Source of the DNA: Sphyrna mokarran
Lineage: Eukaryota
Reading direction: 5' to 3'
DNA length: 64,000 bases
NCBI GenBank assembly: GCA_024679065.1
Contig: JAGIQG010000003.1
Location: 28,334,001-28,398,000, forward strand
Both the position numbers and the translations under genes were made by a program. Under the pieces are notes generated by a model. The model was not told the DNA's origin and ran no database searches. It saw nothing but the letters and a program-made list of their open reading frames with translations. Position 1 is the stretch's first letter; the number at the start of each line of letters is the position of its first letter. This document shows, one piece after another, positions 1-60,710 of this stretch.

Positions 1-1255
1 ATAGAACACCAGGCGGGAAACTGGGCCAATCAGAAGAGTGGGTGTACTGGATGCAGAGCATCTTCAGTTGGAACTAGAGAGGTGCTTATGTTTGGTCAGA
101 TCCTTAATATCGTTATATTAGTTTAATAAACCCATTGTTTGGAACCACACGGAGTTGCCTCCAGTTATTCCAGTTTATTAAATAGCCTTTGAAAACAGAT
201 AATTGCTTTTGTTTCCTGGAGGTGTCTTACTTTTAGGTTATAACCAAGACTTGCAGATAAAAATTCCAGATCATGACAGAGACTGAATACTCAGATATAT
301 AGATGCTGGGAAGATCAGATGTATGAATTTCACTGGACCACCAAAGGATCTGGGCACAAACATATTAAGTGGATTGGTGGAGATATTAGATATTGGCAAA
401 ACACTTGCTCCCTTTTAGCAAATATGAGATATTCACAATTGGGCATGGTGACATGCTTCCTTTTGGATTATTAGCAGGCAACATAATTATTTACACCATA
501 AATGTGCAGAAGGAGAGTGTGTAGTGTTGTACAAACAAAATGGCACCATTTATTTTGATGTTGGCCTGGCACTCTCTATTAATCTATGTCAAGTCTTGTC
601 ATCTAGATTACTTAAGAGGAGAGAGACAACATAGGTATTTATTTAAAATCTAATTTTTAAAATATTTTTAAATCTTCAACAAAAAATTAAAGTGAAGGAA
701 TGAGATTCCACATTTATGAACATTATCTTTTAGTTTCACTGTAGTCACTTGATAGTAATTTAGATTTACCATGCCATTAAAATTTAATAACATTGGAATG
801 GACAAGCCCTAACTTTTTCTGATGAACTGTCATTTACTGCCTAAGTAAAGAAACTTCACATTCTTGTGTGTATTTCAATAGCACACCTCTTGACAAATGG
901 CAGCTTCAGGCAGAGCAGGGCAAGTTTGTCTGCAATTTCTTGATCTCCACATTTAGTGCTCATGTGTGGCCAGTGAAGATTGATTCCTATTTACACCTAA
1001 ATAACAATGAGTGCTGTTTGTCTCTGTTTTTTCAATAGCAAAATATAGTTGTCTGAATGTTCCCCAAAGTGAACTCTTGTAAAAAAAATTAATAGTTTTT
1101 CTTTCTTCAAGTTGTTGAGCTGTGATTATATTGAGATCTAATATTATAATCCTCAGTATATTAAATTTATTCTGCTAGATTAATAGTATTGCCCATTATA
1201 CTCAATATTGACTTATTTATTGGTGTTAAATATGTTAATGTTCAAATAGTGGTCA

Positions 1256-1580
1256 TGATGTAGAGATGCCGGCGTTGGACTGGGGTAGTAAGAACTCAGT
1301 AAGAATTTAGCAACACCAATTTTAAATCCAACCGATTTATTTGATAGTAAATTTGCGAGCTTTCGACACTCTGTGTCTTTGTCAGGCAGAAGAACATTCA
1401 GTAAGAATTTAGCAACACCAATTTTAAATCCAACCGATTTATTTGATAGTAAATTTGCGAGCTTTCGACACTCTGTGTCTTTGTCAGGCAAAGACACAGA
1501 GTGTCGAAAGCTCGCAAATTTACTATCAAATAAATTGGTTGGATTTAAAATTGGTGTTGCTAAATTCTTACTGAATGTTC
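1256..1580 (-). mobile_element. Penelope-like retroelement terminal fragment: tandem plus inverted repeat with hammerhead-like motifs
   Basis: End sequence TGATGTAGAGATGCCGGCGTTGGACTGGGGT; 93-bp direct repeat (1296-1388, 1398-1490); 92-bp inverted repeat (1392-1483 / 1489-1580, one mismatch); flanking AATGTTCAAATA duplicated at 1237-1248 and 1574-1585. Confidence 0.75.
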
Positions 1581-1666
1581 AAATACATAGACTGTACTTT
1601 TACAAAATATTAAAAATGTAATTTTCAACAACTGACATCAGACATAGAAGAAGTTATTATTTTTCT

Positions 1667-5890: not shown

Positions 5891-6005
5891 TAACACATTC
5901 AGTGAAATTTCTATTGTTGAATTCCCCATTATCAACATTCTTGGGGTTACCAGTGAGCAGAACCTTAATTTGACCAGCTGTATAAATACTGTGGCTACAA
6001 AAGCA

Positions 6006-6240
6006 TGATGTGGACGTGCTGGCGTTGGACTGGGGTAAACACAGCAAGAAGTCTGACAACACCAGGTTTAAGTCCAACCAATTTATTTGATAGTAAACTC
6101 ACAAGCTTTCGGGGTTTCTCCCTCCGTCAAGTGAATGGAGAGGTCTGGCCTCAGACAGAGCATATAACAGCACAGACAGTTTACAGATTACTGATTAGAA
6201 TGCGAGTCTTTACAACTAACCTGCTTTACAACTAACTTAC
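6006..6240 (-). mobile_element. Penelope-like element 3' fragment (related subfamily, no fold-back)
   Basis: TGATGTGGACGTGCTGGCGTTGGACTGGGGTAAACACAG...CAACACCAGGTTTAAGTCCAACC is homologous to the two elements above; degenerate hammerhead-like motif on the - strand at 6099-6134. Confidence 0.65.
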
Positions 6241-10049: not shown

Positions 10050-12457
10050 CTGAATCACATCATCATGACAAAGGTTATTCCTACAGTGTAGAAACACTGG
10101 CGAATGGTCAAGCCTTGAAAATGGAGGTGGACATGAGGGTCTCAGTTTCTGTTATTGGGGAACAGACCCTACAAACACCTCCAAAATGGCACCCAACTCC
10201 TGAGCTTAGAAGACATGAAGACCAGACTAATAGCCTGCATGGGGGAAACCTTTACAAATTAAAGACCCAGTGACATACAGGCTCGTCTCTCACTCATTAT
10301 TGTATGGAGGCAAGAACCAAGTCTTATGGGAGAGATTGGCTCCAGCAAATCAGGTTGGGAGATCTTCAGGCTAGGGGTAGGGTAAGTGTATAAAGTAATC
10401 AGTAGATATTCTGGAGTTTTCCAAGAAGTACTAAGAAAAATAAAAGGGGCCAAAGCGAAGATCTATATCAATCCATATCATTGCTGGAAAGACAGGATGG
10501 AGAGGCCTATTACTTATGCATCCAGGATCCCGTCAGATGCCAAGTGGAGGAATTCTCAGATAGCAAAAGTAGGACTGGCAGTCGTACTTGTTGTGAAAAA
10601 ATTCCATCAATAAAGAAGGCTAAGAAAGATGAACTTGATGTTGAGGACGGGGTTATTCTGTGCAGTCCCAAGTTGTTCCTCATTCAGGGTGGTGTCTGAT
10701 ATTAATAGAACTATATAAGGTCACCCAGAATTTTCAAAAACGAAAATGCTGGCTAGGATCTATAACTGGAGATCCAGCCTTGACTCAGACATCACAGACT
10801 TGATGAAATGGTGAGTCTAATGCCAAGAAATTAAAACTCCCTCCCCCAACCTTACTGGGAATGACTTGGCAGGCCATGGATACGTGTACACTTGAGTCCT
10901 TTCTGCAGTCTATGTTTTAATCATGATAGATTCACACTGCAACTACTTAGAGGTGCACCATATGGGCTCCACAACTTCTCACACTACAATTGAGAAGTTA
11001 CAACAGTGTTTGTGCAAGCACAGAATACCAGATGTCCTGGTTTCTGATAACGGCGCAACCTTTACTAATAATGACTTCCAGAACTTTGTGCTCACTGATG
11101 GTATCCGAACATTATCCAACCATTTGGGACAGCATGGTAGCATACTGGTTAGCACTGCTGGCTCACATTGCCAGAGACTCAGGTTTGAGTCCTGGCTTGG
11201 GTGACTGTCTGTGCAGAGTTTGCACATTCTTCCCGTGTCTGTGTGGGTGCTCCGGTTTCCACCCACAGTCCAAAAGATGTACTGGTTAGATGTATTGGCC
11301 ATTCTAAATTATCCCTCGATGTACCTGAACAGACGCCAGAGTGCAGCGATGAGGGGATTTTGACAGTAACTTCATTGCAGTGTTAATGTAAACATACTTG
11401 TGACACTAATAAAATAAACTTAAAAACAACACATCTGGACTGCACCTTATCATCTATCATCAAATGGACTGGTGAAACAGTTAGTCCAAACTTTCAAAAA
11501 CACCATGAAGAAAGAAGCAGTGACATCCACAGAAAGCAAATCGGCATGATTATTGTTTGACTAAAGAACCATGCTTATTTCAACAACAGAAATTCTTTGA
11601 CAGAACTGCTCATGGGATGGAGGCTTTGCACAAGACTAAGTCTACTATTACCAAACCTAGTGGAGAGTGTGAAGATCTAATGAAAAAAGCCAGAAACAAA
11701 ATCATGATTCTGTAAGGCCAGAAAGAATATTTAAAACAGGTCACCTGGTTCATGGAAAGAAATTCGGAAATGGTCCCTGTTGGGTCCCTGGAACCATTAA
11801 GGAGAAAATGGGACTAGTATCTTATAAAGCTAAAGACCAGGGCAAAATCAGAAAGGGGCATCACAGGGGCAGATAGTCCATTCCCAATCAGGATTTACCA
11901 CCAGCCATGAAAGTGGCTGCCTTCCGTGTCTGCCCACAGCTTGAAACTGGGCCCACATTAGTCCCTCCGGATAACAAGAACACAGACTTAGAGATGAAGC
12001 TGAAGAGGAACCCAAGAAGGAACTCAAATCAATCACACTCTCTCACTTACTCTGGAAACGATGGCTTCCCATTCAGTTCACATCGCCAGAAACAATCCTG
12101 CCTTTGATGGACCTCAGACCAGATGCCAAGCAGCAGAAAGGAATTTCTCACAGCAGGGGTACTGGGGGAGAAATCGAACTAAGCGGGGAGGAATTTTATG
12201 ATGCCCATGATGGACACCAGGTATTGTCAATTGATCTCCTTGTGAGTTTTGTGAAGTAGGAACTCCCTTGTTGAGCAAGCAGAGGCTCGTCCAATAGGAA
12301 GTGAGCAGCCGGGGGCCAAAACCTGTTGCTTCAACCTAGATTGGTATTCTACAGGTCCCACATATTGACTTTCACGCTGTAAACCATGGGTGCAGCTCTT
12401 GTGTGCTCATTAAAGGATTTTTGCTGATTGAAGACTGGTCATGGTGGAATTATTACA
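10050..12457 (+). mobile_element. Decayed Gypsy/Ty3 LTR retrotransposon (protease, RNase H, integrase remnants, PPT, probable 3' LTR)
   Basis: Protease-like NGQALKMEVD...SVSVI near 10100-10160; RNase H RPITYASR...SQIAKVGLAVVLVVKKFHQ (ORF 10386-10613); integrase IDSH...TTIEKLQ...IPDVLVSDNGATFT (ORF 10923) resuming HIWTAPYH..SNG after a SINE; polypurine AAGCGGGGAGGAA 12181-12193; LTR-like segment ending ...TTACA at 12457. Left boundary uncertain. Confidence 0.85.
11126..11425 (+). mobile_element. V-SINE (HE1-like), nested in the Gypsy integrase
   Basis: tRNA head GGGACAGCATGGTAGCATACTGGTTAGCACTGCTG; V domain GTGCAGAGTTTGCACATTCTTCCCGTGTCTGTGTGGGTGCTCCGGTTTCC; tail ...GTGACACTAATAAAATAAAC. Confidence 0.9.
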
Positions 12458-16899: not shown

Positions 16900-17200
16900 G
16901 GGCAGCACGGTGGCATAGTGATTAGCACAGCTGCCTCACAGCGCAAAGAATCCAGTTTCGATTCCCAGCCTGGGTAACTGCCTGTGTGGAGTTTGTATAT
17001 TCTTCCTGTGTTGATTTCCTCTGGATGCTCTGATTTCCTCCCACACTCCAGAGATGTGCAGGTTAGGTTGATTGGCCACGATAAATTAACCCTAATATGT
17101 CACATGGTTAGTAGGGTGAATAAGTAAGGTTGGGAGATTGTGGTCAGTGCAGACTCAATGGGTCAAATGGTCTCCTTCTGCATTGTAGGGGTTCTATTCT
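16900..17200 (+). mobile_element. V-SINE (HE1-like) with CR1-type tail
   Basis: GGGCAGCACGGTGGCATAGTGATTAGCACAGCTGCCTCACAGCGC head, V domain, tail TGGTCTCCTTCTGCATTGTAGGGGTTCTATTCT. Confidence 0.9.
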
Positions 17201-19268: not shown

Positions 19269-19845
19269 TGAAACCTGGGAATCACTTCAAATAGCATTAA
19301 TGTTGGCAGTCTGACAGAATTCCTAGAAGTTTCATCAGAGAACCTCTAGTCTCTAATTGTTTCACTGAGTCACTTTTTTTCTTGCCACCTTCAATATTTT
19401 TTATAATTAATGAACAAACCTGTTCAAAGAAAATGCAAAGAAAAACTTTTTGTGCTCCCTTTCCCCTGGGTTGCTCACAGAAGTATTCAAGAAATTAATC
19501 TTTAACTCCAGGAAACTTCATTGAGAGATTGACAACTCTAACCCAGGCTGATGAGCATTGTTTTCCTCTTTTGAATCTAAAGATGATAAATCAAAGAAGT
19601 TTGGACAATCTTACTTTAGTTACTAGTGGACCTCATGATGCCATATTACAAACTGTTCAATATCAAACTCACTGAATTCAATCTTTAGAAATTGCTTTTG
19701 TGTGAAGGGGTAAATGATTAAAGTAGGTTTTACCTGCATCTGCCTGTGCTGTTATAAATCTGAGAGTTTGTGATATCTTCCTTTCAAAAAGCTAAAATTA
19801 TAGTATGAAATTTAACAAAAACTTAATAATGACTATAGAGAAAAT

Positions 19846-20037
19846 GATGTAAAGATGCCGGCGTTGGATTGGAGTGGTAAGAACTCAGTAAGAATTTAGC
19901 AACACCAATTATTAATCCAACCGATTTATTTGATAGTAAAATGGCGAGCTTTCAAAGACACGGGAGTGTTGAAAGCTCGCCATTTTACTATCAAATAAAT
20001 CGGTTGGATTAATAATTGGTGTTGCTAAATTCTTACT
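19846..20037 (-). mobile_element. Penelope-like terminal fragment, fold-back copy of the same family as 1256-1580
   Basis: Same end sequence; perfect 69-bp inverted repeat (19887-19955 / 19969-20037) with a 13-nt loop; 16-bp duplication ACTATAGAGAAAATGA at 19832-19847 and 20035-20050. Confidence 0.75.
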
Positions 20038-23000
20038 ATAGAGAAAATGACAGTGAAAAGAGAAATACTTGACAGTCAGTGAAATCCATTTTGTGAGTTA
20101 CTGCAATATTTCACTTTGACTTGTATTACCTGTACTTTCTTATTATTATCTCCCTTGTAATGGTCAGCTAGTCCTCATGAGAAGAACATATCATGGTTTG
20201 TCCTTCAATATAATTGAATGCAAGATATTTTAGTTGTGTCATTCCTCCCAAATCCATTGATGCATAAATACAATTCTAGTGTACTTGTGCCCATATCCAT
20301 ACTTAATCTGATTGTAGAACTTGAGCATAAAGGCAATAAGTTTAAATCTTGATCTTTCATCCATCATTTTCTGTTTAGTAATTCCTCTACCCATGTGCAA
20401 CTCCACACTAATAATGGTTCCACTTTACCCTGTATGAATGTTTTATGTTCAGATCTCTCTTGAAATTATGACCAGATGTTAAGGTGCAGCAATTTTTAGA
20501 GTATTTTATTTTTTAAAATATCCCCACGGAGATCCAAATGGTAATTTATGTTAATTTAAATAGATTTTATGGTATATCATATTAAAAATGGAAAAGCCAC
20601 CTGATTGTGGGGTTTCTTAAAGATATTGTGCCTAACATAAACAAAATATATTCCCACCTTTGCTTGGGCACTATTTTATTACACTGAATTATGCCCAGTT
20701 TATTCTGATGAGATTTGCTGGGAGTCTGAAATGATTTTGTCAGAACGGATGCACTTTTAGGTCTAACATTCAGGTTGTACCCAAGGAAGAAATTTCAGAC
20801 CAAGATTTCTAATTTTAAACATTGATTTTACATGAGAAATGCTTGTCTAAGAGAGGCCAGAAAGGAAGATTTCAAACCATTAACTAAATTGTGAATGTTA
20901 ATAATTATTATACAACTAAAACCAATTGTGGCTTTCCTTTTCATACACTGCAGTCGGGGCCTCAGCCATTGCATTCCACGTGAATCAAAAACCATCTATG
21001 ATGGTGGTCTGGAAACAGCAGTGTAGAGAAACAGTTTGGCAAACCTTGACCTTTGCATTGAAAACAGGTTTCACATGTCACGCTGTCGCAGTGCAACCGT
21101 GTTTGGAGGGCATTCTAATTACTTACACCATCTGTACCTGCAGAATTCTCAGCCTAAAGCACTTATTACACAATTAAGAACTGTCAAGAATCCGAATTGT
21201 TACATTGTAGCAAAATCATTTTACTTGCAGCAGCCACGGGATTTTTTTCTTCCTCCAGTATACTTTACATTGTTCGTTTAAAAATCATCCTAAGTACACT
21301 CACTATTTTACTTTTGATTATGTAATCATTAAATGAGACATAAAATCTAATTGTTTGTCTTTCGTTATTAATGAATTCAGTGAGGTAATTAGTCTTTTGT
21401 CCCACCCCATGTCAAATCGAGTTAGCTTCTCTTTCACCCCTCTTGTGTGATTAAGTATAGAAATCTATCACATTATCCATCCCTAATTTAATTTAAATAG
21501 TGCTATACAATCTTCTGAGTTATGGACAATCGTTTAGCAGCAGCAATTATAAAGAAAAGACTAAGATAAATTGTCAAGGATTATTTAGCATACTCCAGTG
21601 AAAGATAGCTGTTGAGATTATCTAATGTGATTAAATTGATCATTGATTTAACTTGTTTGATAGTTAATGTGATTAAAGTGTTCACTGGTTAATCTCTAAA
21701 GTAGATCAATGTGAGCAACCCTGAAATCGGCTTCTTCAAAAACTCATATAAGGGAAATGTATTGTATAGGGTCATACAAATTAGCTGACTATTTTCCTTT
21801 CTTCTTAATACTAGCAGTCACCTGTAGAAGGGATTATCTGTCCTAAGAGTGCTTATTACTTGGAAATGGCTCACATCATTCTTCATTATGTTTGAACATT
21901 TCAATGTTGCTCTGCCTCCTGATTGATAGTACAATAAATATTACAGAAACAAAATAACAGGTGCTGATCTTTAGGAAGCAGTGTGTTTGGGGAGCATGCG
22001 TAATACTCCAATTAGCTACATTAAAATATTTATTAGCTTAAAGGTAACAATATACTTTAGACAAGGGTTTCAAGGTGGAGCAGAGGTGGGGGGTGGGTAT
22101 GGGAGCATCACAGCCCAGCTATTATAATAAGTTTGAACAACAAGAAAACAATCACTTAAAATCTTGAGTACAATGTTTCAAATTCTTCCTTCACTATAAA
22201 AATCAATGAAATGCATATTTGTGCAATCCCATCATCTGTTAATTTGTGTTAATGCCATTTAGACTGATAAAATAATACAATAATTGAGCAAGTGAATGTC
22301 CATACGTGAACTTTCACAAACTCATTTAGCTTAGCTTTTTGATCTAATCTGATTTCATTCCTGTAAAACAACCCATCATTTTTTTGTTAAGCAAATAGAT
22401 CTTCTTTCAGAGATCACATCTGGTCATTATGATATACTGTAGTTGCAATAGAAGGCGTTTTGAGCTTAGGTATATTCTGCAAGAAAATTATAAGCTGAGA
22501 TGAGTAAAACATATACTGAAAAGAGTATGTCACCTTTTAAAGTTTGAATGTCATAGTAGTTGGATGACCTCCAGTGAAATAGAATAACTCAAAGCTGTGT
22601 GAGTTTAAGATCTCAAAGGAAAGGTTGTTAAAATCTCCTGGGAGAATGTCACTAATACCTACACTTCATTGTGAAAACTTAATTGGTATGAATTAAGTTA
22701 GGCAGAGTATTTAAAATCAACCATTTGAAGGGCTGGACTGAAAGATTGATATCAGCCTGAAAGATATTTTGTCCCATGATCAAATTAAGAATCCAAATCA
22801 TAGCTGCCGATCTATTGAATTGGGCTGGTCTCAAGGCTATTTATTTACAACCGTGAATTTATAATAAATAAAGTCTGTAAGAAAATTGTAATAAACTAGT
22901 TTTGCTGCTTGGGAAAATTAAGCAATTTTGTAAACTATTTTCGTATTATTTAAAAGCCTCGTAACCTTTATTAATGATTTTAAAATCCTTCTCATTTTCC

Positions 23001-60098: not shown

Positions 60099-60381
60099 GT
60101 GGTACGGTGGCACAGTGCTTAGTACTGCTACCTCTTAGTGCCAGGGACTCAGATTCGATTCCCAGCTTGGGTCACTGTCTGTGTGGAGTCTGCACGTTCT
60201 CACCATGATTGTGTGAGTTTCCTCCGGGTACTTCAGTTTCCTTCCACAGTCTGAAAAATGTGTTGGTTAGGTGGCCATGCTAAGTTCTCCCTCAGTGTAC
60301 CTGAACAGGCGCCAGAGTGTGGCAATTAGGGGATTTTCACAGTAACTTCATTGCAGCGTTAAAGTAAGCCTACTTATGACA
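60099..60381 (+). mobile_element. V-SINE (same tail type as 11126-11425)
   Basis: GGTACGGTGGCACAGTGCTTAGTACTGC head; tail GGGATTTTCACAGTAACTTCATTGCAGCGTTAAAGTAAGCCTACTTATGACA. Confidence 0.9.
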
Positions 60382-60407
60382 GGAAGACTTAACTGTCTAT
60401 CTTTACT

Positions 60408-60710
60408 ATGGTGGCACAGTGGTTAACACTGTACGTCACAGTACTAAGGGTTGATTCCAGCCTTGGGTGACATCTATGTAATACACATTCTCTCTGAGTC
60501 TGCCTAGGTTTTTCTCCTGGTGCTCCAGTTTCCTCCCACTCCAAAGATGTGCAGGTTAGGTTAAATGGTTACACTAAATTTGAACTTAGTGCCCCAAGAT
60601 GTATAGATTAGATGGATTAGCCATGGTAAATGTAAAGGGGGGAATAAGATCCTGGGTATGACTCAGTGGGCCAAAAGGCCACCTTCTGTAGGGATTCTAT
60701 GATTCTATGA
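60408..60710 (+). mobile_element. V-SINE with CR1-type tail
   Basis: TGGTGGCACAGTGGTTAACACTG head, V domain, tail CTGTAGGGATTCTATGATTCTATGA. Confidence 0.85.

Follow-up and report, generated by a model that had tools for sequence, protein, structure and literature searches.

The window analysed here is a stretch of 64,000 nucleotides of the Sphyrna mokarran genome (assembly GCA_024679065.1, contig JAGIQG010000003.1, positions 28,334,001 to 28,398,000). Near its start lies a 325-bp stub of a retrotransposon, inserted within a 12-bp target duplication (1237-1248 and 1574-1585) and carrying two copies of a hammerhead-like motif on the minus strand (Table 1). The stub contains a 92-bp inverted repeat with arms at 1392-1483 and 1489-1580, and in its right part the short 3' end occurs twice, as a hairpin with a few copied target bases. 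It has no open reading frame past the start codon, and the insertion itself is inert.

Table 1. Features of the window insertion and of a second stub of the same family
Feature	Position	Strand	Details
Target-site duplication, left copy	1237..1248	+	12 bp, identical to 1574-1585
Tail: 5' UTR 3' of the hammerhead, to the ORF ATG (1256-1254) and a few codons; long 3' end	1249..1351	-	From full-length relatives
Hammerhead copy 1: core C3 U4 G5 A6 C7 A8 A9, A8 at 1380; 5-bp stem II; AGCU; stem I with one mismatch	1352..1390	-	
Inverted-repeat left arm: second copy of the short 3' end and a few copied target bases	1392..1483	-	99% complementary
Hammerhead copy 2, the motif of the earlier note, with A8 at 1482 and the predicted cut at 1459/1458; lies across the hairpin apex	1454..1492	-	
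Right arm: sense copy, from the core end through the short 3' end	1489..1573	+	
Target-site duplication, right copy	1574..1585	+	
Head-to-head stub, same family	19833..20049	.	14-bp target duplication 19833-19846 / 20036-20049; core cut off by the junction

Read on the minus strand from 1492 to 1454, the motif opens with stem I and the core CUGACAA; one extra A leads into a stem II of 5 bp, after which come GAA, AGCU, C and finally the 3' strand of stem I. The letters, the stems, the AGCU palindrome and the UC site, with a cut between 1459 and 1458, all agree with the description given in the earlier note. A 31-letter pattern of the motif had 1,891 exact matches in the genome and the reversed control had none, which is far beyond chance, and an Rfam search returned no hammerhead hit here at E<=10 and only hairpin-driven miRNA hits. 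The second copy that had been reported 102 bp away is present within a tandem repeat (TRF, 1296-1494, period 102, 98% matches), but its stem I reads UCUGC instead of UUUGC, a variant with only 11 exact matches genome-wide. The stem I described for copy 1454-1492 is real at the level of the family, in which unselected copies have AUUUGC/GCAAAU; in this copy, however, bases 1489-1492 belong to the opposite arm of the inverted repeat. Copy 1454-1492 thus spans the apex, and in its context the region is predicted to fold into one long hairpin and not into a hammerhead.

The 102-bp tandem is not the unit of the element, which is about 3,028 bp long, but a by-product formed at insertion, through template switches whose order we infer. 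Its two A8 positions are therefore not independent, and the dimer at about 1340-1500, which had been suggested for cleavage assays, is not a natural substrate. The second stub of the family, at 19833-20049, has markers that match the young CUGAUGA (G8) lineage. The CAAAGACAC at 19953-19961, earlier linked to the altered core, lies on the fold-back junction of this copy; because the copy carries young G8 markers, CAAAGACAC is a junction product and gives no evidence for A8. Elsewhere in the window, a sister subfamily is represented at 6004-6231 by an older copy, whose stem II differs and whose core has decayed. A further dispersed repeat, which we take to be SINE-like, has several copies, at 11134-11405, 16907-17087 and 60104-60632.

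The assignment to the minimal type I hammerheads of Penelope elements was borne out, as the motif sits in the end repeat of an element that encodes a reverse transcriptase (RT) and a GIY-YIG endonuclease. The stub has many near-identical relatives in the genome, and the longer ones extend upstream into the endonuclease and RT coding region. Full-length relatives measure about 3,028 bp from hammerhead to hammerhead and contain an 893-aa ORF, which opens at the tail-end ATG, 108 nt past the G of GAAA. In the ORF of one young copy (L159), Pfam detected RVT_1 (E=1.2e-9) and, weakly, GIY-YIG (E=4e-4, narrowly below the curated cut-off). The features expected of an endonuclease-bearing (EN+) Penelope-like element were all found: one ORF with RT followed by GIY-YIG, partial-tandem pLTRs, an inverted 5'-truncated copy and a one-sided tail of 30-40 bp; the long and short 3' ends are about 35 nt apart. 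According to the parts of PMC8557442 drawn on here, a Zn-finger-like CX2-5CxxC linker before the endonuclease marks Neptune, and Nematis is also given a linker motif. The shark protein (P0001) has such a linker, CHSNLCKTC, and this sequence suggests membership of the Neptune clade.

The motif has the stems I and II around the core and the palindromic 15.2-16.2 region of a minimal type I hammerhead. In place of a CUGANGA core with a 3-8 pair, C3 stands with A8 in both window copies and in 1,035 genome copies. The youngest lineage (L157, L158, L159, L169, L170 and L173) is less than 1% diverged and has the core CUGAUGA (G8), and four of its copies (L158, L159, L169 and L170) retain intact 893-aa ORFs. 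In the same lineage positions 10.1-11.1 form a G-U pair and stem I is weakened to about 2-3 pairs; to judge from these features, the ribozyme may be losing strength across the whole youngest branch. In six short insertions (L082, L212, L214, L215, L218 and L225) the initial 80-250 nt of the ORF are fused to the 3' UTR and hammerhead, and these insertions resemble mini-elements.

The earlier note proposed that a subfamily had spread with a G8-to-A core, and saw as the alternative that the consensus has G8 and the A8 copies are products of independent CpG decay. Across the family, G8 is indeed the main state at position 8 (19,442 G8 and 7,807 A8), and stem II varies in sequence across subfamilies and stays paired. 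Since G8 is within a CpG, decay should yield CA (A8) and TG (U7, with G8 kept) about equally. Among exact genome-wide matches with the GACAC stem II, 1,035 had CA and 114 had TG, of about 1,891 in total for a pattern one letter longer; these counts are of arms, not insertions, and exact matching passes over diverged copies. Canonical parent copies (C7-G8-C11.1) number 307, so that A8 outnumbers its parent about 3 to 1. By hand count, the first 100 matches listed for this stem II comprised 54 CA, 6 TG and 40 CG, whereas the first 100 listed for each of two sister subfamilies, one of which is a control with a single-base difference in loop II, gave CA:TG:CG ratios of 15:15:70 and 14:14:72 (Fisher p=5e-5 against the first). 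The adjacent CpG of A8 copies has decayed to TG and to CA at similar rates, with 14 TG and 11 CA in the first 100 matches listed, and by hand estimate A8:G8 is about 0.27 in copies outside the GACAC group, near the decay level. Thus the G8 consensus stood, independent decay did not (1,035 against 114), and the spread of an A8 subfamily was upheld by the excess over the mirror CpG change together with the symmetric controls.

Paired copies point the same way. The first 100 matches listed contain 15 opposed pairs, of which 7 are A8/A8, 3 G8/G8, 4 mixed and 1 U7/C7, and 4 of the 7 A8/A8 pairs are spaced 1.3-3.0 kb apart. Two elements (L219 and L239) have A8 in both hammerheads flanking the whole ORF region, and differ from each other in the upstream marker of the 3' repeat; they came from 52/53 junction matches, most of which had an incomplete or differently stemmed 5' hammerhead. 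From the CA and TG counts, the pairs and these A8/A8 elements, we estimate that about 900 of the 1,035 copies were born with A8. Read from genomic copies, these data show the inheritance of A8 and its linkage to a single stem II variant.

Three other readings of the excess were rejected. An excess of dead cores across subfamilies in general is not seen in the two control subfamilies, and an APOBEC-like or general strand bias does not fit the symmetry of the neighbouring CpG and of the same two subfamilies. The idea that each element has one G8 and one A8 hammerhead, with the stem I change marking the dead one, is not matched by unselected loci, and that variant has only the 11 matches given above. 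The loci behind this idea had been picked by a rare word of the query, for which reason the marker table, which covers 200 motifs, excludes L001-L030 and L076-L080.

A change of G8 to A alone is expected to cause a strong drop in hammerhead activity. Our literature search found no measured effect of G8A. In natural hammerheads C3 and G8 form a pair that covaries to U3-A8 (PMC3088659; PMC4209133, each in part; a core consensus is also given in the part of PMC7151607 used). In the anole Penelope hammerhead, which cleaves only with protein, single changes at position 3 or 8 abolish activity, and G8C abolishes cleavage and leaves insertion in vitro unaffected (PMC11167929, in part). On the other hand, some natural core variants retain activity (PMC3088659, in part). 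Among 18 shark copies with U3, 7 had A8 and 11 had G8 (p=0.23), which indicates that no compensated U3-A8 lineage arose. By comparison with this biochemistry, the A8 core is likely cleavage-dead. In one set of assembled contigs (X1), position 8 was 93% G8 by depth, contigs being unable to show RNA ends; two other sets (X16 and X2) each had one contig nearly identical to the A8 reference across position 8.

The ends of unselected copies form two clusters downstream of the GAAA box, one at about 55-85 nt and one at about 95-125 nt. The clusters are alike in A8 copies (12 and 15 of 28) and G8 copies (10 and 12 of 24), and head-to-head pairs usually combine one long and one short end. An inverted copy with a one-sided tail is known for these elements (PMC8557442, in part) and the anole element has two RT start sites (PMC11167929, in part); the anatomy of the window insertion fits both.

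In a tree of 82 arms over 640 nt with CpG columns removed, which is largely without resolution, A8 copies lie about 3% from the centre and form no clade. Like G8, A8 is combined with either state of two markers, an upstream indel (16/10) and a stem I variant (32/15), so that the A8 copies need not stem from a single clone. The ORFs of both full-length A8/A8 copies (L219 and L239) have stops or frameshifts today, so that such elements need not have been autonomous. G8 relatives, active in roughly the same period, could have assisted A8 copies in trans. Most subfamilies, the youngest intact one among them, retain G8, which indicates that the ribozyme matters in the long term.

Templates also appear to have mixed. 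By hand count, 6 of 21 distinct head-to-head insertions have arms that differ at at least 3 lineage-marker columns, and up to 8 (L068), in pairs with at least 300 nt in common, some of the columns being linked or possibly old CpGs. Four full-length elements (L222, L228, L229 and L236) have 5' and 3' hammerheads that differ in stem II or core state, which is hard to explain by the copying of one monomeric circle. From the differing arms and the differing end hammerheads it follows that templates mix, whether the partners are different RNAs or units within one tandem transcript. In five insertions (L068, L198, L076, L062 and L167) the arms share the markers near the hammerhead and differ at several upstream lineage markers, a pattern of sequence that points to two RNA templates per insertion.

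We propose that the window insertion is a truncated copy of an A8 sub-lineage which is likely cleavage-dead and reached about 1,000 copies in one past burst, cleavage being dispensable for copying; we give this reading a probability of roughly 60%. The motif lies between the 3' UTR of one ORF and the next start codon of the RT and GIY-YIG element, and the A8 linked to one stem II variant would have come from CpG deamination in a source element. The resulting C3-A8 mismatch would allow little or no cleavage, as expected from hammerhead biochemistry. The two sites downstream of the hammerhead at which copies end would be two RT starts, primed from two target nicks and giving head-to-head arms with a target duplication. 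As cleavage would not be needed, A8 sources could have kept copying, including full pLTR-ORF-pLTR units, and swapped flanking markers with G8 relatives. With A8 copies about 3% diverged and G8 kept in the youngest intact lineage, the A8 burst is probably over. The copies likely reached some 1,000 because reverse transcription takes uncut RNA, and the probably dead core would either have hitch-hiked or gained during the one burst. The dispensability of cleavage fits the insertion of hammerhead mutants in vitro (PMC11167929, in part) and the existence of clades without the motif (PMC8557442, in part). A bolder version, which we hold improbable, is that the Penelope hammerhead is both a brake and a pairing site: a core-dead mutant would have escaped self-cutting, out-copied its parent about 3:1 and exchanged sequence with G8 sisters in two-RNA particles, in which the core of the partner could cut the A8 site, before G8 returned.

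Another explanation, also improbable in our judgement, is that the G8 core of a sister RNA cuts the A8 site through a strand-swapped dimer, so that A8 is a cheater still in need of cleavage. Minimal hammerheads do act as dimers (PMC4209133, in part), the 6 of 21 insertions with arms differing at at least 3 markers indicate that two templates come together, some elements (L222, L228, L229 and L236) carry unlike hammerheads at their 5' and 3' ends, and 4 of the 15 opposed pairs in the first 100 matches listed are A8/G8. However, A8/A8 pairs (7 of 15) are more frequent than mixed ones, of which about 1-2 are expected from decay alone, and A8 exceeds the canonical parent about 3 to 1. The swapped dimer is disfavoured, at -19.7 kcal/mol against -21.4 kcal/mol for two monomers, energies that cannot separate A8 from G8, and a single tandem transcript could have supplied both templates as two of its units.

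Slightly less probable is that the C3-A8 core retains weak activity that is nevertheless enough, for instance with the protein of the element bound to it. The need of the anole hammerhead for protein (PMC11167929, in part) and the activity of certain natural core variants (PMC3088659, in part) would agree with this, and A8 copies have an intact stem II and GAAA box, both of which, however, the search patterns demanded. Against it, single changes at position 3 or 8 kill the anole hammerhead (PMC11167929, in part), the A8 excess occurs in only one of three subfamilies counted, and U3 compensation is absent.

The suggestion of the earlier note, that the fold is kept for RT binding or priming independently of catalysis, found no support, and we regard it as quite unlikely. 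While A8 copies keep their stems and copies end at fixed distances from the motif, a single burst is too brief to reveal selection on stems, and the ends lie 55-125 nt from the fold and are alike in A8 and G8. The youngest intact lineage has a weak stem I and a G-U pair at 10.1-11.1. Moreover, anole RNA cut back to +20, which by the numbering of that paper is without the 5' half of the hammerhead, still inserts and needs the ORF start instead (PMC11167929, in part).

For the window insertion taken alone, whose A8 positions are copies of one or two templates, decay may still be the source. Otherwise ordinary dead copies, with A8 from independent CpG decay after insertion, are very improbable: although G8 is in a CpG, A8 appears in about 14-15 of 100 copies listed for other subfamilies and about 114 of the 1,035 A8 copies would be decay, the nine-fold strand asymmetry at the position 8 site only, next to an about even neighbouring CpG, and the presence of A8/A8 pairs and A8/A8 full-length elements refute decay for the lineage.

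The shark motif resembles the pLTR hammerheads of metazoan Penelope elements (PMC4209133, Cervera and De la Pena 2014, in part) in its pLTR position, short stem I, additional base ahead of stem II, G10.1-C11.1, palindrome for stem III and many stem II families per genome. In that source, however, the position-8 variant is the compensated U3-A8, whereas here an uncompensated C3-A8 reached about 1,000 copies. Anole Poseidon PAc (Frangieh et al. 2024, PMC11167929, in part) shares the RT and GIY-YIG ORF and the two RT starts downstream of the hammerhead that yield a one-sided tail, and its hammerhead mutants still insert in vitro, whereas the present evidence is genomic and not biochemical. The ATG of PAc is inside the ribozyme, while here it lies about 100 nt past the cut site, and the start sites fall within the 5' UTR and on the ATG; the Cys-rich linker CHSNLCKTC, of the Neptune/Nematis kind, is a further difference. 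Naiad and Chlamys (Craig et al. 2021, PMC8557442, in part) likewise proliferate without a canonical hammerhead and have inverted 5'-truncated copies and a 30-40-bp tail, but they are without the motif altogether and have an N-terminal endonuclease, unlike the single point change seen here beside a G8 parent and sisters. Non-LTR retrozymes (bioRxiv 10.64898/2026.07.22.740005, in part) also have short tandem units with type I hammerheads from Penelope pLTRs. A retrozyme is a tandem repeat family in which every unit has a complete hammerhead; the 102-bp tandem, with its altered core, is a one-off junction product of two units in one stub. It was not observed to spread as a unit, and no other 102-bp tandem was found among the best genome matches.

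Penelope hammerheads and head-to-head stubs are thus known, and the amplified uncompensated C3-A8 lineage is apparently unreported. In the mainly open literature without supplements that was compared, which included parts of that preprint and of PMC6155905, we found no report of such a lineage or of shark Penelope hammerheads; numerous motif families are catalogued in the supplements of PMC4209133, and these could affect how new the lineage is.

In the part of PMC8557442 used, what the hammerhead does in endonuclease-bearing Penelope elements is described as 'unclear', the motif being perhaps a parasite of the element, and the only direct test of that role that we found was done in vitro (PMC11167929, in part). 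The Sphyrna mokarran genome offers a natural experiment, since it holds a core mutant, its G8 parent, weak-stem sisters and young intact-ORF copies that could supply the matching protein. If A8 is dead, cleavage would be dispensable for copying in the short term, seen here in a genome, and the long-term conservation of G8 would imply a separate role of the hammerhead. The pattern of copies suggests that Penelope elements can spread without a working ribozyme.
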